A DNA stretch of 57,012 nt, the filler included, from Sphacelaria rigidula (lineage: Eukaryota): NCBI GenBank assembly GCA_964200075.2. It is 8 parts of 8 records of this genome, joined end to end, with 100 filler letters (N's around TTAATTAATTAA, not from the genome) between each part and the next. Parts side by side here need not be neighbours in the genome. Positions count along the whole stretch, not along the records: positions 28,557 to 35,595 come from CAXNAA020016819.1; 7 more parts are not named here. One strand, written 5' to 3'. A model generated the notes under the pieces. The model ran no database searches and was not told where the DNA came from. It saw nothing but the letters and a program-made list of their open reading frames with translations. Within the stretch, counting starts at the first letter, position 1, and each line of letters begins with the position of its first letter. Below are positions 1,217 through 57,012 of the stretch, piece by piece. A program made the position numbers and the translations under genes.

Positions 1217-1292
1217 TACTGCACAGAGTATAGGCCTATTGCGACTATTGTCTGCCGGAAATAGTTGAAATAGGCCTATACTCTATGCAGTA
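1217..1292. repeat. Short near-perfect hairpin (~33-bp arms, ~10-nt loop)
   Basis: tactgcacagagtataggcctattgcgactatt pairs with aatagttgaaataggcctatactctatgcagta; 3 differences between arms. Confidence 0.85.
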
Positions 1293-1995
1293 CAGTTCTC
1301 GTCTATTGCATCTATTGACCATATATTGTCCAAGGTGTGAAACGTTATTTTCCAGTGATGTCCCAGATTAAACGTACTTCCAAAATTATACTCGGGCCGG
1401 GTGTTTTCGTGATCCTCCTGAGCAGCTCTCGATCGCGGTGTTACCCATGTCGACATTGAAATAACGGTCTTTAGCCGCACATCCCCGTGTCACTTTAGAC
1501 TTACTCACCGCCACCCTTCGCTGTCGCACTTACGATGCTGGAAGATGATTTTATTGGCTGCATGTGTGTCCGCCGCTCCTACGAACATACAAAAAAGCAT
1601 GTACACCGTACCCCGTGTCAGAAAATGAGGCTTTTGTGAACTGTTAGGCAGTAACCAGCACGAGAACAAAAGCATCCGGTCGGGACGTACGGTAAGTGAT
1701 TATACGTATAAACGGTATATATATATATATATATTCTGTGTACGTAGTAGACAGTGAAATACACAGGGCAGAGCAAGAACAAAATTATTAGAACCAGAGA
1801 GAAAATGTGCATATGTCTGATCCGTCTGTCTTCCTTCACAACCACGGGGTGTTTTTTTCGCTTCCACGCTGCCTCCCCTTCTTCGCCCGCCGTTTCATCT
1901 TCACACAATTTAGAACATATTTTGGTTCTCGCTCGTACGCGTCGTCTACTTCCTGCCCCGCATGTACGCATACATTTGGGATGCCCGTTACTCAG

Positions 1996-4900
1996 GAGTG
2001 GCGTACTGAAAGCCTGGGCGATGATCGCGGAGCGCGGGGCCCTCCCTCGAAAGCGCTTCGTTGTAGCCGCTCGCATCGGGGCTGGCCGCTTGTGTGACCA
2101 GGGTATCCTCGTAAGGAAGGAGGCCGTCAAGGTATGTGGTTATTGGCGATGAAATGGTGGTGGTGATAGGGGGGGGACGTACTCATATGTTGCTTGCCTT
2201 AGTCGTGTGACCATTGACCACGCATCCCTTTCGAGATGGAGCACCGTTTCTACTCCTAAAAGGGTGGGGGGAGGGGACGTACTCATTCGTTGCTTGCCTT
2301 AGTCGTGTGACCATTGACCACGCAGCGCTTTCGAGATGAAGCAGGGGGGGGGGAGCTCAGAATAGGGTCGATTGAGATGCGTGTCGTATAATAGTGTAGA
2401 TGATACCAACGCGGGGAAGAGATGAGCAGCGGAAATATATTTTTTTTTTTAGCAAGTGTCACGTGCGAATGTGCTGTATGCCCAGGAATCAACAGTGTTC
2501 ATTTACTGCGCATCCGACGACAGAAATAGAATATACTGCTCACAGAGGAAGGGAAGGAACGGAAAGTGAGGGAAAGGGAGGGAGAGATGGCGCACGTGAC
2601 AAAAAGTAATCGAGCAATGAATCAAAATAAGATCTCCCAAGAGAGTCATCGCCCACCCCGAAGTCATGGCTCACAGACGACGTATAACCTACTTTGTTAA
2701 CGATAAAGTCGCGACATCGGTGAAAACTACAACCTGTACGACATGATATAGCCTGAAGGGCGGACACGTCGGTGATATTGCTGCCGATACACGGCTGTAC
2801 CCATGGAGTGACAGAACGTTGACACCGAGGGTAAATGCACTTTTAACGTGTTTACGCGGCACCGGGGGTACACGACGTGACCGCAGAGACAGAAGATGGC
2901 CTAAAGATTGTAAAATGTCTGTCCAAATACACACGTTCTGAGGTGCAGGTAGCGGTGTGCACATGAGTCTCTTTTTTCACCTGGTATCCTGTGCGCCTGG
3001 CCGCCTGTGTTGTGTGTGACTCTCTCTCTCTCGCGCGCTTGTGTGTTGATTGATTAGTTGTTTGGTTGTCGTACGTTGTGGGTGTTTCCTTTTGTCTCCG
3101 TTATTGAGTATTTTCTGTCGTTGTTCCGCGTGCAAATCCTCCATGCAGCCGCGTGCTTCACGTGCCGGCAACATCCCGTCCATCACGTGTTTGTCGTTAT
3201 TGCTGTTGTTGTTCTTGTCACTGCTGCTGCTGTCGTCGTGGTCGTCGTCGTTGCTGTTGTTTTATGCTCCCCTGACGCATGCAGCTGCTAGCTACACTTC
3301 TCGGCTATAATCCGTTCAACGACACCATGGATCGCGCATCCAACCAGCTGAACATGGAAAAGGCAGAGGCCGAGCTGCGAGCAATGGCTCCCGCTTCGCC
3401 CCCCGCCACCGCCGCCCCGAGCCTTCCCCGACCAGGACGACAGGAAACGGGGGCTGAGAAGGACGATGGTGACGGTGAGAGTGACGCACATCTTATTTCT
3501 TGTTTGTGCATTTTCCGCATGTATGGGAATATAGTCCCCCGCCCCCCCCTCTGCCCCCCCGTGCGCGAGGCAGTGTGTAAGCCGTAGCTGTCTCTGGGAA
3601 TGACAGCGCCAGAAAATGGAGCAATTCACGGAAGGCTGTTGTCTATATGCAAGATGATCAGTAAGCTTGCGATTGAACAATCTTAGCAGGATGTGGCTCA
3701 CCATTCATGCGACTGGCCGAATACATCACGGCGCTTCGCGCATGGTGATTGACTGCGAGCCTGGTGCCGACGAAAACCCAGCGTGCTCCGTCCTGGCTTC
3801 GTGGGAATGTGAGGTCAACGGTCTTCTGACTACGGCATGCAAGGTCACGAGCACATACCTCCGCGCGCGTACGCGTTGAATCCCTGGATCCTTCGACCGC
3901 GAAGTCGTATTTCGGGACAATATCGCCGTCTGGTTGTCCATGATGGTAATCCCGACGCTGTGGCTCGAGAAGATCCTCTATTCTTGTGGGCACACACCTC
4001 CCAAAGACGATATGCCGTGTACTCCGTGATCGCCACACCCCAGATTCCTGTAATATACTGTCGTGGCCGATGCTGGGTCAGTTTGTGTTTCCGAACAAAC
4101 TCAGCGGTCGATGAAGTGGGGACCTGTGCCATATTGCGCGAGAGGGATTACTACACCATGTATTCACATGCTCGGTATGAAAAGGGCCGTCAGGGATCCC
4201 GCCCCTCGCCCCGCCCCGCCCCGCCCCTGAGTGAACCAAATAATTGACCTCAAAAATATATTTTCGAACAAATACGCTTAGTATGCCGTTTTTAGAACGC
4301 TGCTCCCCCCTCCATCTGCTTGTTGTCTGGCGTGAAATATCGCTCAGCTGGCTCAGACGATGAAGACAATCGCAGTGAGAAGAGCTATCGGGGGTCAGAC
4401 GAAAGTGGCGAAGAAGGGGACGGAGCAGTGGAAGATGACCAGGAGAACGGTGACGAGAGCCGGGAGGCTGGCGATACCCCTGGCGAAGCCGATGAGGGCG
4501 ATGCTGACGATGGTGATGATACCGAGGTATATGATAATAAGTGTACTTGCGAAAGAGTACCGGCGGAATCGCTTTCCCCTCAAGAACGAAGATTAAAGTC
4601 AGCACGAATTAGGCGAACGGGGAAGTGTTGGAAGGAGGTGTATGCAGTGAAATAGAATGTGTGCAGTTAGTATTCGTTTTGGGATTCCATGTGCATGCTA
4701 GAAGGGCGGTCGGTGATTTATTGTTGCAGTCATGAGCGAGAAAGTGACGATCGTTTCTCTTTTTATTGCATGATCTGTTTAGTTCAAAGTGTTTTGCGTC
4801 GTGCACGCGCGCGTGTGTATTTGTTTGTTTGCCAGGACATACGGAAGTGTTACACAACGCCATTTATTGGGCGTACAATACTCGTAGCAGGCGCTCTGTC

Positions 4901-6200
4901 GCTCCCCGTTGTTTAGCGCTTTTCTGGATCCTCGCTTTTTTTCTTTGTGTTGGGGGTCCTGAGAGACCGCAGATGTGCAGAATAGTCAACCTGCATCCCT
5001 CCCCCCCCCCACGCACGAGTGCGAGGTAAGGGATGGAGGTAGATCCAGAAGTGGTGTAAAAAAATCGAGGTCCGAGTGCACCGTCTCGACTTGAGAGGGG
5101 GGGAGGGGGGGGGTTAATGAGGTCACGGTTACGGCTCGTACGATCCCCGTGGTTGATGCACATAATTTCGACCTGGTGAACTAGTTTGAAACCACTATTA
5201 AATCATACACAATTTTCCCCGCCTTCCGCCTGCCTCCGACCCGCGCGGCTTCATGCTCATTCGCCATTCTGTTCTGGGCTGAATATCGTGTTTCAGGCAA
5301 AAATATTTTCCCGGGGTAGCTGTCTGCACACGTGTTTGAAATTGTATTCTAGAGTCGGTGTGTGATGCAATGTGATGTACTGTAATGCACTGCAGCGAGA
5401 AGATTCATATATATATATATATTTTTTTATTTCCATTCCCATGAGCACAGCCTTGGAAAATTTCACAACCTGCGTAACACGTATGCTGTGAGGATGATAT
5501 TTTTTTGTGTCATTTCTAATCGTGGCTTTATCAGCATACTCCCTCTGACCCATAAGTAAAGTCCGTTATGATCACACGGACACTTGACCGTGTCCAATGC
5601 CGTAGGCGTTTTTTTTTTATCTTCATTTTTTTTAGTTGAAAGGCGTTTTTTTTTTTCCTGTTTGCGCAGCAGCCAGCGTGCGCGAATGGCCGATAAACGA
5701 TCAGTCGGTCCGAAAATGGCCATATTTAGCCCCTTTTCCATGACACAGAGAAGAACCCTGGAAACCCGAAAAACGGCAAAAATCGCAAAAAAAAGTGTAA
5801 GTGGCTCTTTTTCTCCGGTTCATCGCGGACATACGGTAGCTAGGCCTAGTCTGAAACCAATTCGTTTACATTGCAAACTTGTATTACTTCAAAACAATCC
5901 AGATTCGTCGAAACTACTTATGGGACAGAGGGAGTATGTTGAAAAAAATGGCCGGCTCAACGAGGTAAACTGGGGGAGACCAAACCAGGGTCCTATTTTT
6001 CCTGTCTCTAGGGACAAATGAGTGGATGAGGTCGCGGTCAAGGTTCCGCTTGTGTGATAATGGAGCTTGTCCTCATTCCTTCGTGTATTCGGTGCACTAG
6101 TTGAGTCTTGAAAAGTTCAACTGTTTACGTAGTCCATATACGTGCGATGGATTTGCTTCGGAAGTGAAACAAGCCAGCGTCAAACTAAAACAGAGCTTGC

Positions 6201-6258
<58 letters not shown>

Positions 6259-7039: not shown

Positions 7040-7139
7040 NNNNNNNNNNNNNNNNNNNNNNNNNNNNNNNNNNNNNNNNNNNNTTAATTAATTAANNNNN
7101 NNNNNNNNNNNNNNNNNNNNNNNNNNNNNNNNNNNNNNN
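7040..7139. other. Artificial contig spacer (N44-TTAATTAATTAA-N44); identical spacers at 14179-14278, 21318-21417, 28457-28556, 35596-35695, 42735-42834, 49874-49973
   Basis: The same six-frame-stop linker recurs every 7,139 bp and every intervening segment is exactly 7,039 bp. Confidence 0.99.
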
Positions 7140-12700: not shown

Positions 12701-12977
12701 GTCACTACCGCGTACTTCGCGTTTTTCCGGGTCACAAAACGAAGCTGAGATGATGGGCTACTATCTTCTTCGTGTAAAAACAAGGGGAAAAAAAATGAGG
12801 GGAGGGGAGGGGGGGGGGGGGGGGCGGTATCCCTCCCCCGCCTGCTCGATAGCCTTGCCGGCTTCCCTCCCCCCCCATTTGGGGTTTAACCCCNNNNNNN
12901 NNNGGATGTGTTGAGGACCACAAACGAGGAAGAGAGATGTGGCGGATCTTGTGGTGAGAAAAGAGGGGGGAGGAAAA

Positions 12978-13012
<35 letters not shown>

Positions 13013-13212
13013 GGTATCCCTCGCTCGCCTGCTCGATAGCCTTGCCGGCTTCACTCTCCCGCCATTTGGCGTTGAAATCCTCCGCGGTTTCCGGCACCTT
13101 TCCCAGACCCAGGTCGGCCATCTCGGCGGGGTTGGGGCGGTATGCCTTTCCGGCTTCCCCCGTGAGCTCCACCAGCCAGTCCGCCTCGTCCTTGCGCGGA
13201 GGACACGTCAAC
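9738..13212 (-). CDS. Pleiotropic drug resistance (PDR)/full-size ABCG transporter, partial; exons 13212-13029 and 9909-9738
   Basis: Spliced peptide LTCPPRKDEADWLVELTGEAG...KWRESEAGKAIEQ|ELARPG...FAGSWSYHMKLCFDKKLTLLLKDKAYMKSQIMSALVMG. It carries the PDR motif GFxCPxRKxxADFLxEVT and the segment leading into TMD1. The first donor is GC. Confidence 0.85.
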
Positions 13213-13745: not shown

Positions 13746-14178
13746 GGGGGGGGGGCGTACTGATTTGTTGCTTGCCTTCGTCATTTGACCATTGATCACG
13801 CATCCCTTTCGAGACGGAGCACCCTTCCTACTCCTAATAGAGACACTTTCAACACTCCGGCGCTCCTTACGTTTCTTCCATACATTACACAAAAATCTTC
13901 CACATATCTTATCCCCGTCCTGTTTCGCCGTCTCTGGCCACCATCTATCTCCTATTAATAGTACAACCATCGTTTTCTCCCTACTGTCTAATGCATCAAA
14001 CGATTTTATGCCACCTTTCTTCACGTCCCGCATTTCCCCCTCCAGCACTTTTCGTTCCTCCTTGTAAAGCTCACATTTTGCCACAATATGATTTCTGCTT
14101 TCTATTGCTTTGCCACAGAGGCAGTTCTGTTCATCTACTTCCTTGTCCTTTCGACGACTGGTATATCTCTTTCTTCTT
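13746..14178 (-). mobile_element. LINE ORF2 C-terminus and 3' end (family A), cut by the contig end
   Basis: Open frame RRKRYTSRR...CLCGKAIESRNHIVAKCELYKEER (C-terminal CCHC knuckle)...IGDRWW...GAPSRKGCVINGQMTKASNK, followed by a C10 tail. Confidence 0.85.
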
Positions 14179-19400: not shown

Positions 19401-19778
19401 ACCGAAATATTCGACGAAAGGAACTCACGTGGAACGGATGACGAAGATGGGAACAGATCCGGTAGACTGCTCGATCAGCTTCAGCACAAGGGGCACGGTG
19501 GACCAGACATACTTCATGTCCAAGCGCTGAGTCTCCTTGATCAAAGGAGTGGGCACCGACAGGAGCACGATCTCAGGGTTGAGGTCGGCGGGGCAGTCGT
19601 CCGGGTGACAGCAGGGGATGCCTGCCTCGTTCATCTTCTCGATAATGGCAGGCACCACGTCGAACCCGTGGATTTTGAAACCGTGGTGCTTGTATGCCTT
19701 GGCGTAGGCACCGCCAACCACACCGCAACCGATCTGGATGATACTCTCCTTCGGCATAGTAGTAGCAGGGGCAGACAT
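16462..19778 (-). CDS. GMD: GDP-mannose 6-dehydrogenase (brown-algal type, UDP-glucose/GDP-mannose dehydrogenase family), complete; exons 19778-19429, 18264-17992, 16816-16462; 325 aa
   Basis: Exons of 350+273+355 = 978 nt form an intact ORF with canonical GT-AG phase-2 junctions. Motifs: Rossmann IIQIGCGVVG, SVPTP, IRST|VPPG, FQPEFLR, AEFMKLVHN|YANGLKISFAN and catalytic GAPYGGVCLPKD. It is short and lacks the C-terminal domain, as described for brown-algal GMDs. Confidence 0.92.
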
Positions 19779-21501
19779 TTTTATCGGTGGCAGGATACTG
19801 AACTCAGGGATAGAGAGTGTATGTCGGGTTGGAAAGTGGAGTGACCGAAGTGGGGATGGGATGGACGGCGGGGCAGGGCTGTCTTGAGTTTTTTTTTGTG
19901 GGGAATGATGCGTACCTGCGTGGATGAAATGTTCCGAGAGCGAAACTAAATGACCGGAATTTATAAAAAAAGGTACAGGTATACCCGATTCGACGACGTA
20001 GCTGCGAACCGAGAAGTAGGAGCGCAAGGTGGAACGCAACCCTTCTGGCTCGATATCACACCCTGCAGTAGCTAAGTGGAGAGTGCTCCTACCTATAGGA
20101 TCAATATAACGGTGAGCTGCAAGATATTTTTGGTTACATTTCATATTTCGCACACTTTGGCGTGGATTATGACTAAAGGGTGATATATTATTCCTTATTT
20201 CCGTCTTGGGCGGTGTTGTCATCGCGCACAGCAACCTTGGCAACAGAAGACAGCAGCTAGACACTGAGAGGGGAAGAGAAGAGGGGCGGGAGCTAGGGAA
20301 ATATCGTGAAAGAGAGAGATAGTTGTGTCAATTTCCACCCGTGTAAGTGCTGCATCTCTCTGTGTGTGCTTGAAGCGGGTAGCCCATTTGATTGCTTGCC
20401 GGCGCTACAATAAATTGGTATTATAGTGCAACTTTCAACCTTAGACGGTATACTGAGCGACGTCTTTCAGCTACACTACTTGTAGGACACAGAGACTAGA
20501 CTGGAGGCAAAATGGTGCTGGTTCTTTTCCCGGGTTACATCGCTTGAATAAAGTACGCGGATATCACTGAAATATCAAAAGTACATGACGGCAAACCCCA
20601 ACATCTGGCGTGCCAAACGCGCATGACATGGCATGCACACTTCGACTGGTGATAACACAAGACCACACACCCCCCCCCCCCACCACCCCCCCCACACCCC
20701 CAACCTCACCCCCCACCACCTGCCCTCCCAACGCGAAAAACCAAGCTAGCCCACCTCCCTTTGTGAAAAACCCCCCCCCCCCCCCCCCTCCCCAATCGAG
20801 ATATCTATGACAGTGCTTGCTCCACATAAATATCGAGGCCTAAAACTCTCGAAAAATTCACGTTAGTGTACGATCTTCACGCGATTCATCCGAATGCAGT
20901 GACATTGACGGCACGGGCCCACCGCAGTATCCGAGAAAGTCGAGGTTCGTTATATTTTCTCACCGGGCATGTTATACACCGTCATCTAATAGACGCGGAC
21001 CACAAGTCTATCGTGTCACATTTGCGATTCCAAGCAATTGCCTTGTACTTGATAGGAGATGTGCTGTTTGGCTTAGCCAATGTTACGCTACGAATTCCCT
21101 GGCACATGGGGGCAGAGTTTAACTGTTCACCGTACTTGTTTCACCCGGTATTTGGTAAAATCTTGAGGACGTGAACCCTTAGACAGCGAGATTAGTCTTT
21201 CTGAATCACGCATACTTTTTTTCACTTGAAATTGAACACGATTCAACAGAAGACTACGAGCTGGGCCAGCCCAGAAACGTATTTAACCTGGCAGAGCAAT
21301 ATCTCATCACCGGAAACNNNNNNNNNNNNNNNNNNNNNNNNNNNNNNNNNNNNNNNNNNNNTTAATTAATTAANNNNNNNNNNNNNNNNNNNNNNNNNNN
21401 NNNNNNNNNNNNNNNNNCCCGTTTTCCGAATGGCCGGGTAATGGCCCTTGGCTCACGGCCCCCAAAAATCATCGGTCCCCCCCCCCCCCCCCCCCCCACC
21501 C

Positions 21502-23445
21502 CTCGGCATCAGCAATGATGATGAGGTAAGGAGGTTGAGAATAGGATCGTGGAACGTGTGTGGATTCACCCCAGACAAGGACAAGAGAATAGAGATAGCC
21601 AGACAATTAACGCGGCCTAGATACAGTGGGAATCCAAGAGTAATGGAAGAAAGAGGGGGCGGAAATAGGGTGCAAAGTTGAAGAGTACGCATGGATAGGG
21701 GAAAAGCGGAAGGGACAGAACACTAAGAGCAGGGGAGCGGGGGGAGTAGGATTTTTAGTCAAGGAATACCTGTGTGACGTCATAGAAGTGATCACAGACA
21801 CAAAATTCGACGAGAGCATACAGTTGCGGCCCGGAGATAAGAAACGTCAATTTGGGGTTGACGCTCAGAGTCTTATTTCGGGCGCAAACACCAGCATAAG
21901 TTGTGTCTTTTCTTACATCGAGTTTTCATATATTTGTGGCCGACCGGATCCTGTTGATTCTCTTAAATTGTCGTTTTTTCATTTCTTCGATGTACTGCCT
22001 CCGCCACCTCCTCGCTGCACGCAAATTACCCAACGAAAAACACCCCCGCAGGTCTACAGTGTCTACCCGGCGCTACCCAAAATCAAAAACGAATGCCGCT
22101 CCCACAAAAAGTGCAGTTTAGCAGGAGGGGGGGGGGGGAGTCTAGATATAGAGGGTACGTTTCTTAGTTGGGAAGGGGCTCCTCAGTCACTTAGTTTCTT
22201 ATTTCTCATGCCTATTTTAGGTATGCATCCGCGCTGTTTCTTATTTTCATGTTTCTTATCTTGTCGCCCAGTTTGAGGTGTGTTTCTTAGTCCATTTTTT
22301 TAATTTTCCGAGAAAGGCCCAGCCTCATTTTCTCAACTATTTTTTTCTTAATTGCGGGCCGCAACTGTATGGATTAGGGTACCAGGAGAGCGGGGAACGA
22401 AGGACTTCTCCGTAGGGAACATCCGTATGCCCCCAGAATCGAAGTGAACGGTAAACAATATACAGCTGAGGTTTGGAGAGATAGTAGCACATGTGCAGGA
22501 GTACAAAAGGCAAGGAGAAGTAATGTTAGTGGGAGATTTTAATGCAAGGGTTGGAAAAGCAGGACGACCGGATCATATCATTGGGCAATACGGGGAAGAG
22601 GAGAAGAACACGAACGAGGCAGATATCTTCAAGTTCCTCGAGAATGATGAGGGGAAGACGCTGAACGATAGAGCACAGAGGTCAAAGGCGCGATGGACAC
22701 GGACTAGAAAATGCAAAGACGAGAGAGAACGCTTCGTTCTTGACAGCATGGTGGTCAAGCATGGAAATAGTAAAAAAATGGAAGTACATGTACGCGCAGA
22801 GGACGTGGGAACTACAGATCACTGCGTAACATGGAGAGAAAGCCAACAGACGAGAGCTGGAAGAAATAGGCGGGGTAGGAAGTTGTACAAATAGAAAATC
22901 GATAAACTAGAAACGGAAGAAAAACAGCAAGAGTTTAAAGAAGAGATGGCAAACACTACAGTGCAGTGAACTTCTCTGAGCTATTGGAAAGCGTAGGTAC
23001 AGCCGATACCGAAATGGAGAGGGATTGGGCAGGAGCGAATATTACTGAAGGATGGGAGCGGTTGGTCGAGAACACAGCGAGTAAAATCATAGGGAAAAAA
23101 CTGATCGTATGCAATAGAACAGTAACAGTAAGATGGCGGGATGAGGAAGTGAAAGAGGCTATAAGAGTGAGAGAGGGGCCCACGCAAGATACATATCGAG
23201 TAAAACTACGGTAGGATGGGAGGAGTATGCTACAAGCTCGAAAGGAAGTACAGAAGGTGGTGGAGAAGAAAAAATGAAGGGAGTGTGGAAAGATGTAGGG
23301 AATTGAACAAATGAATATTTCGATGGCGGGATGAAAACAAATATGGGTAGGGATGAAAGGGATCAAGGGAAACAAGGCAGGAAAAATAGACAAGGGGATA
23401 GCCACGCTACGGAATGAGGACGGTAAAGTGGTGAGTAGTTCGAAG
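21502..23445 (+). mobile_element. Degenerate LINE, N-terminal APE endonuclease region of ORF2
   Basis: RRLRIGSWNVCGF, GGVGFLVKE, EVMLVGDFNARVGK, FVLDSMVV and GTTDHC motifs with stops and frameshifts. Starts right after a long C-run and is interrupted by a MITE. Confidence 0.88.
21821..22367. mobile_element. Tc1/mariner-type MITE nested in the LINE
   Basis: TIR cagttgcggcccg / cgggccgcaactg with a TA TSD. Removing it restores the LINE peptide TKFDESI-WIRVPGERG. Confidence 0.92.
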
Positions 23446-24455: not shown

Positions 24456-24548
24456 TGCTCCGTCTCGAAAGGGATGCGTGGTCAATAGTCCAACGACTTA
24501 GGCAAGCAACAAATGAGTGCGCCCCCCCCCCCCCCCCCCCCCCCCCCC
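24456..24548 (+). mobile_element. 5'-truncated LINE 3' end (family A) with C27 tail
   Basis: tgctccgtctcgaaagggatgcgtggtcaatagtc...aggcaagcaacaaatgagtgcg followed by 27 C. Confidence 0.85.
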
Positions 24549-28391: not shown

Positions 28392-28456
28392 GGGGGGGGG
28401 AGGGGGGGGCGTTCTCATGTGTTGCTTACCTTAGTCGTCTGACCATTGACCACGCA
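28392..28456 (-). mobile_element. LINE 3' end (family A) with C-rich tail, cut by the contig end
   Basis: tgcgtggtcaatggtcagacgactaaggtaagcaacacatgagaacg followed by C8-T-C9. Confidence 0.8.
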
Positions 28457-31543: not shown

Positions 31544-34500
31544 TCACAACGCTACTTGAGAGAACGACACCAACGACAAGACAAGGGGAAAAAAAAAACA
31601 GAGGGATTTCAAAGAACACGAAAAAACTCGGAAGAAACGCAATTCACTATCAAGGTTATTCCGTGTCCCCGCCGTGTCGGGGTTGCGCAAGACAGCTGTG
31701 TCGATGTCCCCTTTGTCATGTCGTTGTAGGCACCAAGATCCCCGGCGAGCGGTCGGCATCTCGGTGTAGTAATCGTCGTGGAGACGGATCTTGAGAGGAC
31801 CCGGATCATCGAGGAAGCGGGTGTAGTAGGAATCATCCGCCTCAGGATCTATCAAATGAATCTTCCCCAGCCACCACCGCGAATCCATAGCCCTGTACCA
31901 AAAATATGCACCTTCCGGCAAACGTTTCTTCGAAAAAGAGCGCAGGTATTGCGAACGAGAAATGAGACTATAGCCCGAAATGACAAATCGTGCCGAGTGT
32001 TCTCGGCCCAGTTCACGAGCTGCTGCGCCTTTTCGCTTGGACCTATATCGTTTGTTCAACGGGCGGTGTTGGACGACATCTCCGACCCAATATAAAAGTA
32101 TCTCTCTTCGAAAATGACGCAAATCCTCCTCCCGTTCCCACGTAACACGCATGAGGCCTTTCCAGTGTGTCTGATACATAACCGCAATTTTACCGCCTCG
32201 ATCTCGGACTAATTGATGGCCCGAGATACGATCTACCACTACACGTTCAAGAGGACCGTCAGCGTCTTCAACCGTCATGTGGTACGGTGGGGATGTCGCC
32301 GCATACCTGGTTAGCACATACTGACTGAGCCCCATAGGCAATTGCTTGGGCATATCACTAGTGTCGTGAGGGGGCAGACACGGCTTGCACCGAAGCATCG
32401 AGACCCGGTTTTTGGGTTTGACGCCAGGTTCATCTGTGGGAAAATCCAGATACAAAAGCTTCTCACCTACTGGTTCATCGTCAGGTGCGGTATCACAGGG
32501 TCCAACTGCCAAAATCTTCCAAGGACCACTCCAATTCAAGCAAAGCTTCGACTTCAACACCTTATCCGACGACGACTTAGCAGAGCTTGCACCTTGGGTT
32601 ACAGTTCTCACATCGTTATACACCCATGCCCATTCACCTACTTTCCACACCGGACGGTTGTTCACGGCATCATCCAACACGTTGTTTGCCTTAGCTACCT
32701 TTGCTGCGTTGATCAAGTTCTGCTCCCGTACCACATATGCAAGACGAAGGCGATTACTAACAGACATATGATACTCCACAATATCTCGATCCAAACTCTG
32801 ATGACCACCAGGGGGTTTCCTGTCGATAACTGTCAATGGCAGCCTGGGCATACGACCAATATGAACTTCATTGGGAGCCAAGCCTGTGGCGGCATTGACG
32901 GAGTTGTTGTAGTTCATTTGGACAAGGGCTAAGTGCAGGTTCCAGTCCGTTTGTCGCTCATTGGTCACTGTGGCAAGCATTTGCGCCATCGTGTGATTAA
33001 GTCGTTCGGTCCCACAGTTTGTGGACAGATGGTATGAACTAGTAAAAATACGATGGGCACCCAGGAGATTACTGATCGCGGCAGAACGTTTGCCGGCAAA
33101 ATGTGGGACGTTATCGGATAACAAACGTTTGGGGACACCCCACTGAGGGACGCATGTGTACACAAGGACGTTGGCAGTCCCTTCTGCACTATAGTTGGCC
33201 TCCGAAACAGCATTCATCACAGCATGTCGATTGAACCGATCCGTAAACAACGAAATGTAGTTGTTACCACTATCAGTGAGGGGCAGGGGGCCAAATCAGT
33301 CCCATAAAACTATTTCACCAGGCCCATGGAAGAGGGGCATAGAGATTACCGGCCATCCAACGGTTTGACGCGAAGTTTTGCGTGCTTGGCAAAGAAGACA
33401 CCGCCGAACCCACCAACGCACACATTGGTCCATACAAATCCACCAAAAAACAAACACTGAAGCATCTGGGAGGTCCTAGCGACGCCCAGATGTGTGAATG
33501 CTTGTGAGTGGCATTCATGGAGAACCCATGGATGCAGAAGCATCGGAATATTAATACGTACGGGGGCATCACCCAACAAGCGGGCGTGACTACTTGTAGG
33601 TTTCCCTCCAGGAGGGTTCCTGGGGGGGGGGGGCGTACTCATTTGTTGCTTGCCTTAGTCATTTGACCATTGACCACGCATCCCTTTCGAGACGGAGCAC
33701 CTAAGGCTTCCTGGGGGGGCAGTGGACTAAAAGAACAACGCCACCATCATCCGTATAAAGTATGCCTTTACGCGATAATTCAGTAACTTCATCCTGTGTG
33801 GGGGCTCGGTGGGGCCCTACTGGCAAAAGGAACTCAGTTTCTGGAAAGGGGGAGGGGCATCCTTTGGAAAGATAATGTATAACTGCTCTACAAGCAGGTT
33901 CAGCTTGCTGTTCCCGGGCCCAATCGGCATGAGAAAAGAGGGTCAGTTCCTTGAATACACCGTCGGAGGGGTTGTCCAAAACGCAGGGGATCAAATCGCT
34001 GTGGGATGGACACGAGGCGTTATTTGGATCAAGGGCAGAAGGGGTGGTCAGTGTATTCTCAAGCGGAACGTTCACCTCTATTCCTACGTTGTGGAGAGTG
34101 TCGGATGGTGTGGTACCGGAGGTGATACCATCACGGGGTGGAGGAGGCACAGTCGAGGACTCGACTATGGTGGGCAGAGGTGGTTTGGAAGGTGTCGATT
34201 TTCTGGGGGCTTTGCGCCGTGGAGGTAGCGGGGGCGCAAGGAGGCTATCGGGGACTTGAATGGGGTTGGGGATTGGGAGGTCTGGGCCGGCTGCTGCCAG
34301 GGCGGCAGCCGTTTTCGCGGCCCGGCGTCCTCGGGTCCGGCTCGAGATGAGGTCTCGGACTTGAACCGGGAGGACGCAGTCAATAGAAACCGGCTCTACA
34401 GTGCAAATCATCCGATGACCAGACGCACGAAATTAATCATACCCGCCGGCATTTGCATGAATTTCACTCCTAACTGAACACAACGATCGTGGGGCCAAAC

Positions 34501-35595
34501 TGCCCAATACAGAAGCGTGAGCCGAAGGCGTCAGCTTATTTTCAACAAGTGCCGAGTTGTGGTTCAATAAGAGTGGAGTATAGAATCCGCGATGACCATT
34601 TGTGCTTATGAAATATACAATGTCTTCGGTGGGGTCTGTGACGCGACCCAAGGCAAAGTTATCGATGGGTTGGGCTGGTAAGGGCAAGCGTGACAGGAAG
34701 TTGGCGTTTGCGTTTTGGGTACCTGTGCGGTACTTCAACGTGAAGCTGTAGGAAGACAGGATTTCAAACCAGCGTTTAACCCGGGCATTGTGTTCCGCCA
34801 TTTTGGCGAGGTTTTCCAAAGACTTATGATCTGTATAAATCAAAAACGGGAGGTCATACAAATACTGCCGGAGCCGGCGCACTCCCCAAACAATTGCACC
34901 TGCTTCTTGTTCCATAATAGACCAGTTCTGTTCGTTTGGGTAGGTGGTTCGGCTCAGATATATAATGGGGCGAGCACTAGCATCGTATTGTTAATGTTCC
35001 AGTGTGCAGCCAAACCCAATTTTCGAAGAATCTGTGTGCAGTCGGAACGGACGGGAGCCATTTTCAGCAGCTGACCAGTCTGGAAAAAGCAGAATTGGTG
35101 GCTTTGACAATGTATCGAGCTGCTCTCGTATAATGTTTTCCATTTTCGACGTGAACACGAATTTCACCCCCTTCTTGAGGGGGGTGGTGAGAGGTTTTAG
35201 AGCTTGGGCTAAATTGGGCAGATATTGACGGTAGTAACTCAAACCACCCGGTAAAGAGCGCAGTTGACAGACATCGCGTGGCATGGGCATCTCTTTAAGT
35301 GCGGCAACTTAGTCGAGGTTGGGGCTACGACCGTCAGGGCTGATACAATGGCCTAGGAACTCGATGCGCGTGGCTCCAATGCGGGATTTAGATGGGGCGA
35401 GCTTCAAATTGTGTTGTTCAAAACGAGCAAAGAAGGACGCCAAATGTTCGACGTGTTCAGCAGGTGTACTGCCGTGAACCACCGCATCGTCGAGGTACAT
35501 GCGGCATTTGGACAGTCCATCAATGACGCGAAACATCACACGTTGAAACGCTCCTGGGGCGCCGGCGGCACCTTGTGGAGTGACCAGCCACTCAT
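31544..35595 (-). mobile_element. Ty3/Gypsy LTR retrotransposon pol (RT-RNaseH-integrase-chromodomain plus extra C-terminal domain), degenerate, 5' part cut off
   Basis: RT: PQGAAGAPGAFQR...YLDD...IEFLGH. RNaseH: FRLHTDSS, EQEAGAIVW, IYTDHKSL. Integrase: HECH..HLG, LLSDN..HF, GTERLNHT, WSGPWKI (GPY/F). Chromo-like: VDRISGHQ..YQTHWKG..TWERE. The RT-RH-IN order is Gypsy. Several stops and frameshifts. Confidence 0.95.
33629..33703 (-). mobile_element. 75-bp 5'-truncated LINE 3' end (family A) inserted in Gypsy pol, with 16-bp TSD
   Basis: Flanked by agggttcctggggggg (33613-33628) and aggcttcctggggggg (33704-33719). Removal restores Gypsy HCPPR(N/K)PPGGKP. Confidence 0.9.
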
Positions 35596-37524: not shown

Positions 37525-37766
37525 TCAAGTTCATCGCGCGTTCACTCGCGCTCGAAGAACACTGATCATGCAACCGCGCGCACCCTACCTGCTCCGCCTC
37601 AGTCACGCCGCCGTCATTTACACAATGATAATACTGTACATGCTGACGACATCCAGAATATATTTTCGGACATCTCACCGGCTCTCGAATCCTCAGTTGA
37701 AGGATCCAGCCGTAATTCATCGCATAACCGACGACCCCGCAATGATCGCGACCCCCCGTCCCGCTC
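37525..37766 (+). repeat. 242-bp direct repeat, second copy at 38845-39086
   Basis: Near-identical (about 9 substitutions), offset 1,320 bp. Confidence 0.95.
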
Positions 37767-38249
37767 GGATGTCAAGAAGCATGCAGGGCATGCGGCGGGC
37801 GCTGAGGTATAGCTAACCCAGGCGTCCGCGGCCGTGGCGAAGGCTGTCGCCATGAACCACAAGGGGAAGACCATGCGTGAGAGGGTGGAGCCAATCATGG
37901 GAAAGTTGTAGACATATTTTTCCGAAAATCCCAACGTCGAGATGTTTTATCGTTCCTCCGATGGGAAATTCCGTCGAGGGCTCGCTGCGGTGATCACAAA
38001 AGCGATGGCGGAGGGTATGGCACCGGCGAAATTCATACAGGCCGTGCTTATGCAATTACAGCACGAAACCAATTGGAAGTCAGACCCGTACTTAGTTATG
38101 GATACCGTGGTGGCTGAGGCTCAGGCATGGCGGAAGATTGAAGTATTCGGGAAATCATCCACTTCTTCGCCGCAGTCTTCGAGCTTGTGTAACCGCGGAT
38201 CAAAATCCACAGGCAGTAACGCCGCCAACATCACTTGCTTTCAGTGTGG

Positions 38250-40885
38250 GCCCCAATCGCAGGACTCTCGCCAGTCCAATGCGCTCTGCTGCGCAGTCCA
38301 ATGTTGGACCAGCAGTCGCGGCTATGCATTCTGCCCTGCAGAATTTGCGTCGCCCTTGATCGGCGTCGGCGCACACGCCAGTCTCAGCTCTAATCGAGGC
38401 ATTTACGGCCTTTTGCCAGGCCACGCTCCAAAACCAATCGGCGTCTGCTCACGTGCAGCTCACCGATGACTCTGCACCTGCCACTCCCTAACCCACACGT
38501 TGGGCGCCCCGATCGGCGACACCGCGTTCTCCGTTCGTTTCCCATGAAAAATCTAAGGAACACGAGTCCAGCCCCTCCTCCACTTCAAACCAAAGTCCTG
38601 GTCGCGCTCCTGAACAGCGCCGCACACCGACAGTTGGTCACGACCACGTAACCCGTGCTGGCAGTTCCAAGGACAACTCCCAGCACAGCTTGAATTGATC
38701 GCGCGTTTCCACACGCCCGACGATATCGCTTATGGCCGCACATATGAAGGTAGTACACGCAACAGTTCCAATTCACCGCGCGCTCCGAAGCGCCCGATGA
38801 ATGCCGACCGTGACCGTACTCACGAGGATAATTCGCGGCACAGATCAAGTTCATCGCGCGTTCACTCGCGCTCGAAGAACACTGATCATGCAACCGCGCG
38901 CACCCCTCTCGCTCCGCCTCAGTCACGCCGCCGTCATTTACACAATGATAATACTGTACATGCTGACGACATCCAGCATATATTTTCGGACATCTCACCG
39001 GCTCTCGAATCCTCAGTTGAAGGACCCAGCCGTAATTCATCGCACAACCGACGACCCAGCAGTGATCGCGACCCCCCGTCCCGCTCTGATGCTGCGACTA
39101 TTCGCTCCCTCCAACAACGACTGAAAGGTCTCGAGCGAGAACTGACCAAGTCCAGAATGAAGAACAAGGGAGTTACCACCGCCGCTACCGCCAAGACCGC
39201 TAGGGAAAATACAGGAGTTGCGCCACTGCTGCTGCTGTCACCACTGCCGCTGCCGCTGCCGCCCCTGCTGCCATGACCGCTGCGCCTCCCGTCACGACGA
39301 CTACAGTCACGGCTCTCACGACCGTTACCGCCCCATCTGCCGTCAATACAGACGCCGATGGTGGTTCTGTCACGGATGCCCCCGTGCTCCCGCCCCCGTC
39401 TGTGGAGGATCTCACTCCGCTCGGCGACGAGTACTGCCCAAATGATATCCTCTTGACGCTGTTCAGGAACTTCCCCCGCGCGGAGCAGTTAAGGCTCATC
39501 GAGGGTTATGCCTCGCAAGCGCCAGCACTTGCCAAGGACATCATAGAGCAACAACGGGAGGCCGACGCCGCTGCTGCACGCCTTGTGGTTGAGGAACACG
39601 CTGACATGCACAGAGATCTTCAGCGACAGGCTTCACGCGCTCAAACTACGAATTCCGCGGCCCAGAGACGAGTGAGAGACCTCGACGACCATGTCCGACG
39701 GACCGCCCACGAAGCGGTCACGTCGGTGGCCCGCCTGACCAACAATCAGGCCTCTCCTCCGTCCTCCAGCAACCCACTCAGTGGTTGCCCTTCTCGCCAG
39801 CCCACGACCGGCACGTCGACTCACGTTATTTTCACGTAAGTCCGACCAACCGCCGTATGCTGCGGCCGCTGCCGTCCCCAACACGGCCCCAACACCCCCG
39901 CTTTGTGCAGCTAGCTCGGCAGCCAATGCCGGCCCGATACCAGGCCTGCAACTCGCGCCCCACGAATGAACGTGGCTTTCTCGTTCCGCGGCCGATTGTA
40001 CCGGCCCGTTCCGGATCACCTACGCTGCTTCCGCCAAGCTTGGAACTTGGTGTCACAACGCCTGCACCACGTTACTGGTCTTTACGTGGACCAGGGGGGA
40101 TTCTTCCCCGACAACGGCGTACCGTCCCTCACCTTGGGCCGACTTGTTCTGCATATGACCATCGACGACAACTCTGGTCACCAGCATTACGTCGAAACTG
40201 TCACCGATCGTTTTGCGGCACTATGTGCCGCTTACCCCTCTGATCCCGGCGCCACAATCACCGACGATGACCAGGATGACGATAGTTGGACTCCCACGAG
40301 TGCCAACTGCAGAGGCAAGAACAAGAACCGCCGGCGGGATGACGACGATAACGATGGAGGAGGCCCACGCCGCCGCTGTGGCGGCGGGGGATCCTCCTCG
40401 GGCGCTTCCGGACCGAGCCGCCCGGTTCACAATAACCGCGACCCGACCGGGATGGAAACAGGAGGCAATTTTTCCGGATCTTCCGCGCCGAGTTGGAACC
40501 GGTCTAGCACAAACCTGCCCCCCTCGGGTTCGGTGACACCCAGGCAAGTCATACCTAAGTTGGCCGATGTTTCGGGTCGCATTTTGGGTTTATCTGATTC
40601 GGACACACTAGACCGTCCATTGTCTTCCACTGCAGCCCGCGCTTTAGCAACCGCTGCGGCCGACAAAGAACGTTCCGAAGCTATTAAAAAAGCAGCTTCC
40701 GATAGAGTTGAGTCTGCCCGAGTAGCTGCAGTACAGAGACAGTACATCCAGATCGACGTGAGAAAGCTTTCGCATATCAAACACATGCCTGCTGCGGAAA
40801 ATGAAGATTCGGGACAGTCTACTTCTGCCCTCATCACATCCATTCGCCCTACAGTTTGCAATATCCTTCACTTCGCGGATGCCAC
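38250..40885 (+). other. Unidentified coding-like segment (Thr/Pro-rich, coiled-coil, gag-like), probably from another retroelement
   Basis: GC-rich ORFs 38695-39276, 39273-39839 and 39966-~40885 with coiled-coil character (LAKDIIEQQREADAAAARLVVEE); no recognised catalytic motif. Confidence 0.4.
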
Positions 40886-42834: not shown

Positions 42835-43310
42835 CGAAGCGCCGTGGTGTGTTCGGCAAGCCGCATGAAGGGTGAGCTGCATGCTGCTAAGATTGTTCGG
42901 CCCAGAGCCTACTGATTATCTTGCATTTGGATGACAGCCGACAATGAGTTGCTTCATTATCTGGTAATGCCACTTCCTGGGACAGCCACAGCTTCTTCAC
43001 TGCCTCACAGGTGCTTCACCATGTAAACACTACGTGGAACGATCATCCACGTTGTGCGGAGTTGAGGTTCTCCCACGCCGAGGGGGGGGAGGGGGGATGT
43101 AGTCATGATCTTGCATGTCTTTGTCATATAACCATTGACCTCGCATCCTTACAAGGCCAGGACGGAGCACGCCGGGTATTTCCGGACCAGGTTCGCAATC
43201 AATAACCACCCGCGAAACGCCGTGGTATATTCGGCGAGTTGCAAGAAGGGTAAGCTGCATCCTGCCAAGATTGTTCCGCCCGAAGCCTACTGATTATCTT
43301 GCATACGAAT
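42835..43310 (-). mobile_element. Two LINE 3'-end fragments (family B): 42835-43010 and 43082-43310, the latter with a C-rich tail
   Basis: Homologous to 3560-3879; gtgctccgtcctggccttgtaaggatgcgaggtcaatgg...gactacat followed by C6-T-C8. Confidence 0.75.
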
Positions 43311-46700: not shown

Positions 46701-49451
46701 CTTCTCCCCTCCCTCGGGACGAGTCCGTGGTCTCAAGGGATCAATCCATCTCTCCCCGGCACACGCCTTGCATCTTGGTCTCGCGAACTGGGTCAGCACA
46801 CTCCCGCACCGCGTCAACTCTCGTCAAACAAACTCAGTCAACTACTTCTTGTATACTCACGTCCCAATAATAACGCTTTCGACCATGGAAATCAGATACT
46901 TTGAGGTACTTCGAAGGAAAATCCGACGGATCTGGATTCGAACCCTCATTCTCTCCACTCTAATGATGACAGTCGGACTATTTTACTTCATACCACGGAG
47001 GCGCGGTGGTGCCATACCTTCACTGAAGGCTTGGTCAGAGAAAAACCCACGCTGGAGTTAGCGTGTAGTGTGAAGACTGCCACGTGAGCGGGTCCAGAGA
47101 ATTAATCCGCATGAGGATTTCGGCTACAATGTGACTTTTCAAAAAGGGTTGAACTTCGCCCAAGAGAAATCCACGCTTGACTTACGAGTATAGTGATGTA
47201 CCCGTTTGATACTGGCATTTTTGGATGGGCTTTGTTCTACATTTACCTTCGATGGAGTATAAACTGCGCTGATGTGCTGAAGTTGAAAAATATGGTCTGG
47301 CAAAACGAAGCCCGCGTTCGGGCGCGAATGTATTCAAATGTGATCCTGCAATATCACCTTCAAGGGTAGGTTTGTGTCGGGGGTAAGATCTGATTGTCCA
47401 TGTTTTCTTCCTTCATTATCTAGTGTACTGACGATGTATTGTGATGTAAACTGACAGCAGATGCAGCTGATGCAACCACAGCATATCCATTCTTTTTTCC
47501 CACCAACGTTAGTCAGGAAAAGACGTGAGAGATTAAGTTAATGCCGAGCGAGTCGCATCTGCGGGGTTGACGGGTGATATTTAGCAGGTATTGTCGATGG
47601 AACCTCAAGTACCCAGAACAAGGTGACAAAACTGCTCCAAGGGCTTCCTCCTTGACTAGGGCTCGTGGAATTCACAACAGATTTTGTTCACGAACAGTTT
47701 TCGTTACGATGAGTGAGCTTGCGTCTTTGTCCATGCACATACATCTTGTGTCAAGTAGTCGTGTACAAACATGCAGATAATATCCCATGATCTCATCTCA
47801 TGCAAGCCTGATATCTTATCCCCTGCTGCGCTGTATACCAACCGACAGCGAATTCATGCACCTGCAGTGTACTGTAGGTGGTATACTCTACAGCACCCCC
47901 AAAGCTCCGCAGCGGGCCAGAATAGGATGAGCATTGAGAGCTTGCTATGGCGGCGCTTGCCTGTGCTGTACAGCTTGCTGTGCTCCGTCCCGAAAGGATA
48001 CATGGTCAATGGCCAAACGACCAAGGCAGAATTGTGTGTACAGCTTTGGAATCTCCGCAATTTCATCTCCTCACCCATCTCAACTGTAGCATCGTGCGCG
48101 CCTGCGTTAGGGAGATACGACTTGCACCCCATAACCGCCTAGACGTATCGGACAAAGGAAGTACACGGACGGACAAGCCACGCTCTTCAAAAACAAGGAA
48201 CAACAGAAAACAACAGGTGAAACGCACACACACACACCTCGCCTTCTCCTTCCCCTTTTTCGCCATCAACAACACCAGCCGCCCCAGCTCCTGCAGTGCC
48301 ACCATCACCGCCCGCAACATCATCCCTATCCAATTCCGCTTCGAAGAGTCCCTCCAGCTCCTTCTCTCGTTCCTCCTCCAGGAACACCATCTCGTCCGTG
48401 CGCTGCCACAATCTGAGGGAGCGATCGTGCCCCCCGGAGAGGACAAACGATCCGTCCGGAGATACTTCCAACGTCCACGCCTATTTTCGTTTTCGTGTCA
48501 TGTTGAGGGGGGGGCATCAGGGTAGTGCCAGTTGGATCTTCACCTTGAGAGAGTGACAGTATTCATGCATAGTCAAGCGTCAAGCCCAAAATAAGAAAAC
48601 ATTTTCCAATCGAGTTCCGGGTGAGAACGAATCTGCGCCATGCATGTATGCTCGAACATATTTTCATCAAGGACTTCAAAAGTCGGGGGAGACCCTGACG
48701 GTTAGCATATGTACATGAAGGGACCCAAGCGAACAAAACGTGAACGTGCGTGTGAGGGGACACAGCACACGTTACCATCATCGATCCCTTGCGTGCATCC
48801 TAGCTTAGTTGTGTTTGCCGTTGCCGTTCCTGTTGCTTACCTCCGACTGGTGGCCCTTGAGGGTCAGGATCTTGTCGAAGTGATCGGCGTCCCAGTGCTT
48901 CAAACTTCGGTCCTTGGAGCACGTGAACATGTAGTGCGTCCGGGGTACAAACCGAACGCTCTGGGACAAGACAAGGAGAAGGAGAAAACCAAAAAGTTGG
49001 ACAAGGACGACGGAGACAAACGAGAGACGAGAGACGAAAATTCAGCAAACAGCATCAGGCGAAGGAAACAGACGAGTAACGGGGACAACAGGTCGACGGA
49101 TAAGATCACCGGAAGCATATCTTCGAAGAAGAGGGGAATACAGTAGTCGGATTTTGCGTCGTGCCTCAGGAGATCGTGAGACCGTTGACGAACAAGCGAG
49201 GCTGTAGAGAATATGAAAAAACAAGAAAGCACGCACCATAACACTGTCGTCGTGTGCATGCAGGCTGCGGTGACAGTCCCCGAAATCCAGGCCCCAGATC
49301 TTCACCGTCTTATCCGCCGATCCCGTGGCGAGCAGCGCGCCGTCGTCGGAAATATCCATGGACATTACGGGCAACTTGTGGCCGTACAGAGAGAGGAAGA
49401 ACTTCAGGGAATCGTCGTGGAACACCTTCACCGTGCTATCCAGGATGGCGA
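43756..49451 (-). CDS. WDR3: WD-repeat protein 3 / U3 snoRNA-associated protein UTP12 (Dip2), partial; exons 49451-49237, 48960-48841, 48480-48238, 44627-44394, 43908-43756
   Basis: Canonical, in-phase exons: [84 protein letters not shown]...|...[10 protein letters not shown]...|[20 protein letters not shown]|..[11 protein letters not shown] (Utp12 domain). Confidence 0.95.
46660..46990 (-). mobile_element. Putative tRNA-derived SINE in a WDR3 intron
   Basis: B-box gggttcgaatcc (~46934-46945, reverse); 3' segment shared with the element at 13290-13630. Boundaries approximate. Confidence 0.55.
47980..48028 (+). mobile_element. Decayed LINE family A 3' fragment without tail
   Basis: gtgctccgtcccgaaaggatacatggtcaatggccaaacgaccaaggca. 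Confidence 0.65.
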
Positions 49452-49806: not shown

Positions 49807-49853
<47 letters not shown>

Positions 49854-50001: not shown

Positions 50002-50043
<42 letters not shown>

Positions 50044-56500: not shown

Positions 56501-56517
56501 TCCCCGTCCGTCCCTGA

Positions 56518-57012
56518 TGAGAAATATCCGGCAGAGTTCAAGTGGAAGTGGGGAGAAAAGAGACTGCCGATCGTAGACCAGAGTACATACCTTGGCGTAG
56601 ATATCTCAAGAAACTGTTCTTGGGATGCACAAATAAACAAAGTAATAGAAAAGGGTAAGGCACAGATAGGCAGGTCGCATGTGGTCCTCAGAGAGCCGCG
56701 CCTAGACACTAGGATCAAGAGATGTATGCTGATGAACGTGATCGTACCAAAGCTGGAATATGCAGGAGACGTATGGGAGGGGAATGTGAAGTTGGTGGAG
56801 AGGTTGGAGACAGTACAGATGGCAGCAGCTAAGGAAATACTTGGATGCTCGAAATGACGAGTAATACAGTTTTGATAGCAGATTTGGGAATGTATTCACT
56901 TGGAACGAACAGAGACATGAGGAAATTGCGATGACAATATAGCGTAAAGAACATGCAGAGAAAGAGATTGCCAGGTATAGTTGATAGGGCTGTATGGAGG
57001 AAAAGTACGATA
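56518..57012 (+). mobile_element. 5'-truncated LINE ORF2 fragment (RT domain 7/thumb)
   Basis: KWGEKRLPIVDQSTYLGVDISRNCSWDAQINKVIEKG...LMNVIVPKLEYAGDVWEG...LETVQMAAAKEILG, then a stop and frameshift. Confidence 0.85.

Follow-up and report, generated by a model that had tools for sequence, protein, structure and literature searches.

The 57,012-nt stretch of Sphacelaria rigidula DNA (GenBank assembly GCA_964200075.2) analysed here, called the window below, carries the 3′ end of a long interspersed nuclear element (LINE) at positions 33613-33719 on the minus strand. The element lies inside the pol region of a Gypsy retrotransposon and has a direct repeat on both sides. We consider it rather likely that this insertion is a young, 5′-truncated copy of a very abundant brown-alga LINE with a single open reading frame (ORF), whose RNA ends in a genome-encoded run of C's, (C)n, and is primed at G-runs. 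The (C)n tail of the family is well supported. Priming from a G-run at the nick would best explain the few informative junctions, and is partly supported.

The LINE insertion in Gypsy pol

On the minus strand the insertion reads C7-AGGAAGCCT, 2 nt, a 68-nt repeat ending in ...CAACAAATGAGTACG, C12 and AGGAACCCT. The flanking repeat on this strand is C7-AGGAA(G/C)CCT. Its upstream (5′) copy at 33704-33719 consists of C7 and AGGAAGCCT, and its downstream (3′) copy at 33613-33628 of C7 and AGGAACCCT; a repeat search returned the pair as a 16-nt direct repeat with 94% identity (15/16) and a spacing of 91. The 75 nt between the two copies comprise 5 extra C's at 33629-33633, the 68-nt LINE 3′ end at 33634-33701 and 2 extra nt at the 5′ junction, 33702-33703. 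The latter match neither the LINE nor the target and read TA, compared with AAC before GGTGCTCC in LINE copies. The five C's, which represent the oligo(C) tail of this copy itself, extend the C7 of the downstream repeat to the C12 now present at the 3′ junction, although any split of this C12 between tail and target is arbitrary.

The host Gypsy pol region, with RNase H, integrase and chromodomain, was traced with Pfam over 31544-34990 on the minus strand. The RNase H ORF (34433-34990) matched PF17917 with an E-value of 2.6e-23, the ORF with integrase core and chromodomain (31544-33295) gave weak matches under the Pfam cut-offs, and the LINE insertion sits between the two. The inserted 91 nt are not a multiple of 3, and their removal left a single open Gypsy frame across the site; the host copy is also frame-broken elsewhere. 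The preliminary description of this locus had reported a LINE 3′ end in Gypsy pol with a 16-bp repeat starting on C7 and a C12 at the 3′ junction, and had held that the pre-insertion site could be rebuilt from the reading frame. The sequence is as it described, and the frame does allow the reconstruction. Because the C7 of the upstream repeat copy falls within the Gypsy coding frame, a C-run was already present in the target; the reading frame alone is the basis for taking C7 as ancestral in the host Gypsy family.

The earlier identification as a 5′-truncated LINE 3′ end was borne out by matches to the public contig L001 and to the end of the LINE ORF. The 80-nt stretch 33622-33701, which is the 68-nt unit with C12, was 100% identical to L001, which indicates a young insertion. 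In a tblastn search, the unit at 33634-33701 matched the last 20 residues of the LINE protein P0003 at 100%. A similar nesting was seen in an Ectocarpus gene model of 1,927 aa (P0008), in which Gypsy pol domains (RT, RNase H and PF08719) are fused to the C-terminal third of the LINE ORF; this model is probably a LINE inserted in a Gypsy element and read as one gene.

A C-rich tail on all readable copies

When the window was searched with a 15-nt 3′ motif, 8 matches with at most 3 mismatches were found against 1.5 expected, a number reached in none of 100 shuffles. True family copies account for six of the 8, at positions 2169, 2262, 13746, 24456, 28392 and 33613-33719, and their tails, directly after the motif, are T-C8, TCCCCTCCCCCCACCC, C10, C27, C8-T-C9 and C12, respectively. 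The two other matches, at 11724 and 21244, were rejected as chance. Five more copies were found in unrelated public contigs (L001, L002, L005, L008 and L019), with the tails C13, C9-T-C9, C8, C10 and CCTCCCCCCCTCCTCCC. In all 11 readable copies, six from the window and five from public contigs, a C-rich run of 8-27 nt comes after GAGTAC(G), and none of them ends in an A-run. The sequences beyond the C-run were unrelated among the 11 copies.

The window is made up of eight pieces of ~7,039 bp, separated by N44-TTAATTAATTAA-N44 linkers at 7040-7139 and each 7,139 bases on, so that features are not to be read across a join. The first two copies form a head-to-tail dimer at 2169-2353 on the minus strand. 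It consists of a 66-nt unit (2278-2343) with the tail TCCCCTCCCCCCACCC and a 94-nt unit (2178-2261) with the tail T-C8 (2169-2177), and a C10 lies upstream at 2344-2353. Both units begin their tail with a T, an interruption common to this subfamily. The copy at 13746-14178, on the minus strand, runs from the C-terminal part of the ORF, with its CCHC knuckle, into the unit and a C10 tail at 13746-13755; its stop codon is mutated from TGA to TCA, and it is cut by the piece end. The copy at 24456-24548, on the plus strand, is a 66-nt unit with a C27 tail at 24522-24548, and the copy at 28392-28456, on the minus strand, is a unit cut by the piece end.

Logan contigs from four public runs labelled as algae were placed on 33200-34100. 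The runs X16, X18 and X1 gave 47,907, 7,984 and 55,086 contigs and the fourth run 14, almost all on the 80-nt unit. Beyond the 3′ end, the top classes of loose ends were G-runs on the plus strand at 33622, in 1,197 (X16), 175 (X18) and 1,114 (X1) contigs. In this family of very high copy number the C-run is thus a terminal tail of variable length and no fixed internal segment of the element. It had been claimed beforehand that the other copies end in a GAGTACG-like sequence followed by a C-run and never in poly(A), with a fixed internal C-run named as the finding that would speak against a tail; the six window copies and five public copies agree with the claim, and the variable runs with unrelated flanks identify the C-run as a terminal tail.

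A 20-nt pattern returned 20 loci in metagenomes, 3 of which were family members and 17 chance matches, and the family was not found in viral contigs scanned by DNA pattern and by protein.

A single ORF that ends just before the tail

Contig L001 carries a single ORF of 1,382 aa (999-5144) with endonuclease (APE) and reverse transcriptase (RT) domains. PF03372 was matched with E-values of 8.1e-11 in the L001 ORF and 3.4e-12 in P0003, PF00078 with 6.7e-32 and 9.8e-31, and PF14529 was matched too; the N-terminal 194 aa and the C-terminal 365 aa of the ORF had no match in Pfam. The LINE ORF also carries a CCHC knuckle, and the window copy at 13746-14178 extends upstream into such an ORF. Seven longer homologues were found, and six of these end in ...NGQMT(K/T)ASN(K/N), at a TGA inside AAATGAGTACG. 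The 68-nt unit thus consists of the last 20 codons with the stop codon and 5 further nt, and in the insertion the TGA is at 33639-33641 and the GTACG that follows it at 33634-33638. Only 5 nt separate the TGA from the C-run, which leaves the element practically without a 3′ untranslated region (UTR). A reading of the 70-nt 3′ motif as a UTR was rejected, since the motif codes for the C-terminal end of the ORF.

Several properties place the element among the LINEs. An apurinic-like endonuclease stands N-terminal to the RT in one ORF, as in APE-type LINEs; copies range from 66 nt to ~5 kb and have a common 3′ end; and one 16-bp duplication was found. The tail is a simple repeat other than A, in 11/11 copies and in the G-run loose ends of public contigs, and a poly(A) tail of the L1 type is absent. 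The best matches among solved structures were L1 ORF2p (E 6.6e-21) and R2 (E 8.8e-20), and the best named protein relative was from an Ectocarpus species. Atlas look-alikes of the LINE protein were generic APE/RT clusters only, without clade names or taxa. Two fragments of related LINEs were also located on the plus strand of the window, an older one at 21520-23445 that spans the endonuclease and the N-terminal part of the RT and matches residues 162-615 of P0003, and an RT fragment at 56516-57009, which matches residues 960-1124.

Three of the public contigs are filed as bacterial yet carry the LINE, namely L001 (uncultured bacterium metagenome-assembled genome, MAG), L002 (Sulfitobacter MAG) and L003 (a 330-bp contig of a Hyphomonas oceanitis assembly), the last being 99% identical to L001. 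The protein P0005 is likewise labelled Parasphingorhabdus. These contigs look like algal DNA that contaminates bacterial assemblies.

Short units and head-to-tail arrays

Units of ~66-68 nt form head-to-tail arrays with C-run spacers. In the placed contigs, breaks at 33699 into a G-run, corresponding to a C-run directly upstream of a unit that starts with TGCTCC, were counted in 346 (X16), 95 (X18) and 325 (X1) contigs, and continuation into the LINE at 33701 in 656, 213 and 667 contigs, respectively. Over the 15 rows listed out of 60, joints going back 70-80 nt sum to at least about 200 contigs in each of X16 and X1 and to few in X18. Given these arrays, C-runs upstream of a unit in the public contigs are not independent evidence for the choice of target.

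Three truncated window copies start within a few nt of one position, which suggests a discrete short unit or array-derived templates. Position 33661 is A in the window and G in most X16, X18 and X1 contigs, which therefore read ACGACT on the element strand in place of ATGACT, and the ACGACT variant was also present in the units of the dimer and in the copy at 24456-24548. The short array units seem to be a subfamily apart from the long copies L001 and L005.

Sister families and a candidate 3′ module

A profile and a covariance model led to diverged units in the window (43098-43171, 3782-3855 and 47979-48042) and in algal contigs (L026, L027 and L002 2644-2719). The tails of these six were C-rich in four (43082-43097, L026, L027 and L002 2644-2719), decayed in one and absent in one. 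The 3′ end of a diverged sister family at 43082-43175, on the minus strand, has kept the core GTGCTCCGTC...GGATGCG.GGTCAATGG...ATGAC, and its aligned TGA is followed by CTACAT and C6-T-C8. A second copy of the sister family lies at 3782-3858 on the plus strand and has a decayed tail (CCTCCGCGCG). The old diverged unit at 47974-48043, also on the plus strand, is the sole relative with no C-run. In the sister-family copy at L002 2620-2660 (minus strand), the terminal 7 nt CGAGTAC occur twice, 10 nt apart, and are then followed by a short C5; slippage or re-initiation at the 3′ end may have left this doubling.

The covariance model finds 17 units, with a predicted three-helix structure in which 90.4% of cells pair, compared with 29-50% when the partners were slid. 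Two pairs have changed on both sides, and 6 of 500 shuffles gave a covariation score as high. A single unpaired G separates the predicted terminal stem, GUGCUC/GAGUAC, from the C's. In Rfam the unit had one weak chance match only (E 0.67).

Target choice and priming

The preliminary description had proposed that G-runs are the sites nicked by this family and that a C-rich RNA end serves for priming. The geometry on which this was based is correct, as a repeat that begins with C7 on the element strand means that the nicked bottom strand ends in G7, which is able to pair with a (C)n RNA end. The proposal itself stood in part. One clean junction pair (33613-33719) and one probable pair (the dimer at 2169-2353) are in its favour, and a C-run was found at the 5′ flank in two of the three testable junction pairs in the window. 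In the dimer, the 9-mer T-C8 is present on both outer sides (T-C8 to T-C10) and matches the T-initial tail of the subfamily. C-runs of at least 7 begin at 4.3e-4 of the oriented window positions, so a repeat that starts exactly on a C-run is unlikely by chance, in a case that was picked post hoc.

If this reading is correct, the endonuclease would nick the bottom strand beside a G-run, and the freed 3′ end of the G-run would pair with the (C)n at the 3′ end of the RNA. The RT, bound to the adjacent conserved 68-nt module, which is also coding, would begin synthesis there. Slippage on the homopolymer would give tails of variable length, and a second nick, 16 bp away in this case, would give the target-site duplication. 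The element's own C-run tails might then become targets or template-switch points, which could build the head-to-tail arrays of short units.

Several observations weigh against this account. Only two junction pairs favour a C-run in the target, and in one of these, the dimer, tail and duplication are inseparable. A duplication was sought around the truncated copy 24456-24548 and around L002, and none was found. For the long copies L001 and L008, no 5′ end could be defined. None of the 15 joints listed out of 60 skips the insertion as an empty site would; a 103-letter X18 contig fits 33536-33627 and continues with 11 unfitting letters, as an uninterrupted Gypsy copy would, and was not counted. 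Where a C-run stands upstream of a unit in public contigs, it may simply belong to the preceding array unit as its tail. C/G runs of at least 7 number 49 in the window against 5.8 expected (~8-fold), which raises the chance of hitting one. The old relative at 47974-48043 has no C-run. As for the module, the fold energy of the unit was no better than that of shuffles (z 0.03), and a further fold-energy test was not significant (z -1.49). The structure came from one sequence of the family, and the alignment was then fitted to it, so the pairing figures favour it. A conserved three-helix module at the LINE 3′ end is therefore only hinted at.

A different reading of the C-runs is that the LINE, in the manner of microsatellite-specific LINEs, is strictly site-specific for (C)n/(G)n tracts, so that each copy would have landed within an existing C-run and the tail would be mostly target sequence. 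The window is rich in such tracts, with 25 C/G runs of at least 9 against 0.44 expected; the dimer is flanked by C-runs on both sides, and C-runs stand directly upstream of many short units, as counted at 33699. We nevertheless regard strict site specificity as unlikely. The clean duplication holds 9 nt other than C, and its target run was just C7, in coding sequence. The copy at 24456-24548 has no upstream C-run, and the public upstream C-runs are open to the array explanation given above.

Alternatively, the C-run could be absent from the RNA, with the RT adding untemplated G's to the nicked end ahead of copying the RNA; each insertion would then gain a C-run irrespective of its target, and the C7 of the duplication would be coincidental. 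R2-type enzymes are known to add untemplated nucleotides at LINE junctions. The tail length of 8-27 nt, the 5 C's at 33629-33633 in excess of the target C7, and the 2 extra nt at 33702-33703, which show that the enzyme or repair can add letters, are all in line with this. However, the C7 of the upstream repeat lies within the Gypsy coding frame, where a coincidence would have a chance of about 4e-4, and the dimer has T-C8 on both sides. The T interruptions common to the subfamily also fit a templated tail, and we judge untemplated addition to be quite improbable.

A third option is that the element ends in a few C's and that the long runs grew later by replication slippage, with no role in retrotransposition. 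Homopolymers are unstable, the tails vary from C8 to C27, and 18 of the 25 window runs of at least 9 have no recognisable unit alongside. Yet the youngest copy, with 80 nt 100% identical to L001, already has C12, at least 8 C's are found in all 11 copies, and the duplication itself begins with the run; later growth is thus very unlikely. More speculatively, the tail might be added after transcription by a nucleotidyl transferase, for example one of the CCA-adding type acting on a stem with a discriminator base, and the predicted terminal stem with its unpaired G and the C's has this appearance. Retroplasmid reverse transcriptases that start at a tRNA-like 3′ CCA are known. ARAGORN, however, found no tRNA-like gene in the window (0 genes), the weak Rfam match and the non-significant fold energies weigh against it, and the shared T interruptions again fit a templated tail, so that we give this option hardly any weight. 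Sequencing or assembly artefacts such as the poly-G read ends made by two-colour sequencers have a negligible probability, since, although one X5 contig shows the opposite homopolymer at the element end, the runs lie at one fixed end and strand of the element and are bordered on either side by unique sequence, and they recur in six window copies as well as five contigs from unrelated assemblies.

Comparison with known elements

LINE tails other than poly(A) have been described, among them (TAA)n in I, (TGTAA)n in UnaL2 of the L2 clade, and (CA)n, (CAA)n, (CCAT)n and similar repeats in green-algal RTEX, and variable tail length has been attributed to slippage on the terminal repeats of the template as reverse transcription begins (available parts of PMC3747384). 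As the I factor and UnaL2 are presented there, the algal LINE resembles them in its conserved common 3′ end and its short tandem-repeat tail of variable length. It differs from both in that the repeat unit is a single C and in that the 3′ module is coding, with practically no 3′ UTR.

The algal LINE has an APE and an RT like human L1, which nicks at TTTT/AA and has a poly(A) tail. The proposed priming is also alike, in that a nicked homopolymer would pair with the RNA tail and the duplication starts at the run. In contrast to L1, the tail is C instead of A and there is a single ORF. A C tail cannot arise by normal polyadenylation and must be templated or made in some other way, and the strongly conserved 3′ end points to specific recognition of the RNA and not to the relaxed recognition of L1.

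Some LINEs, including Dong, Waldo, Mino, Kibi and Koshi, target microsatellites. The algal LINE is like them in that the simple-repeat target matches the element's own tail, and unlike them in that its clean duplication has 9 unique bases and a target run of 7 C's. Targeting of C-runs thus looks like a preference rather than a strict site specificity.

RTE elements typically have a very short 3′ UTR that consists of simple repeats. According to the available text of PMC12477816, no LINE group of Ectocarpus is more abundant than RTE-X, which counts 16,418 copies and whose short non-autonomous elements have the same 3′ end as the LINE; Jockey, RTE, L1, CRE and RTEX-1 are listed for the Saccharina genome in the portion available of PMC4421812. 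The abundance of the algal LINE and its short elements with a shared 3′ end are alike, whereas a (C)n tail is not among the RTEX tails described in the available parts of PMC3747384 and PMC12477816. The available text of the 2025 Ectocarpus transposable element (TE) paper, its supplement and the terminal motifs of its Fig. 1C aside, does not mention C tails or C-run targets (PMC12477816). The preliminary description knew of no poly(C)-tailed LINE and left novelty unconfirmed; no such LINE turned up in the literature searched, with the same supplement and figure set aside. LINEs with simple-repeat tails other than A are therefore known, and a homopolymer C tail is new as far as our searches reach, although (C)n tails may already be recorded in curated brown-alga TE libraries.

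Other features of the window

Among homopolymers of at least 15 in the window, 11 are C/G and one is A/T. Very long runs (C55, C44, C40 and G33) are located at 6202-6256, 49808-49851, 50003-50042 and 12978-13010, with others elsewhere, and most have no recognisable LINE unit alongside. A second C-tailed repeat was found on the minus strand at 12799-12889 and 12986-13076 (upstream to ~13400), where its end, ...GAGGGATACCG(T), precedes C16 and C33. This 3′ end does not resemble the LINE unit, and ~340 nt upstream of it there is GGGTTCGAACCC, which resembles a tRNA B box. This repeat (12799-13076) had no match in the three genomes behind the public LINE loci, and it may be a short interspersed nuclear element (SINE) or another C-tailed LINE family.

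A pair of 247-bp direct repeats with 96% identity is located at 37525-37771 and 38845-39091, in a region whose GC content is 59%; the two lie 1,320 bp apart. The ORF at 19425-20327 (minus strand) encodes an N-terminal NAD-binding domain of the UDP-glucose/GDP-mannose dehydrogenase type (PF03721, E 8.1e-8) and is probably an exon of a host gene.

Implications

In practical terms, pieces of the algal LINE sit in contigs filed under bacterial genomes. If priming at G-runs holds, the family would be a natural test case of how base pairing between tail and nick steers LINE integration, with another base pair than in L1. It would also mean that the recognition element of an RT can lie wholly within coding sequence, it would explain the abundance of C/G homopolymers in the S. 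rigidula genome, and it would provide a marker with which thousands of short LINE-derived units and arrays could be annotated in brown-alga genomes.

A wider interpretation, which we put forward as a possible but doubtful one, is that a whole clade of brown-alga LINEs replaced an A or microsatellite tail by a homopolymer C tail, that their endonuclease and RT became specialised for G-run primers, and that their RNA recognition module is embedded in the coding end of the ORF. Tails, abortive insertions of the tail only, and arrays would in that case account for most of the many long (C)n/(G)n tracts. Such a switch would imply a self-reinforcing landscape of targets in these genomes, together with a large load of G-tracts capable of forming G-quadruplexes.

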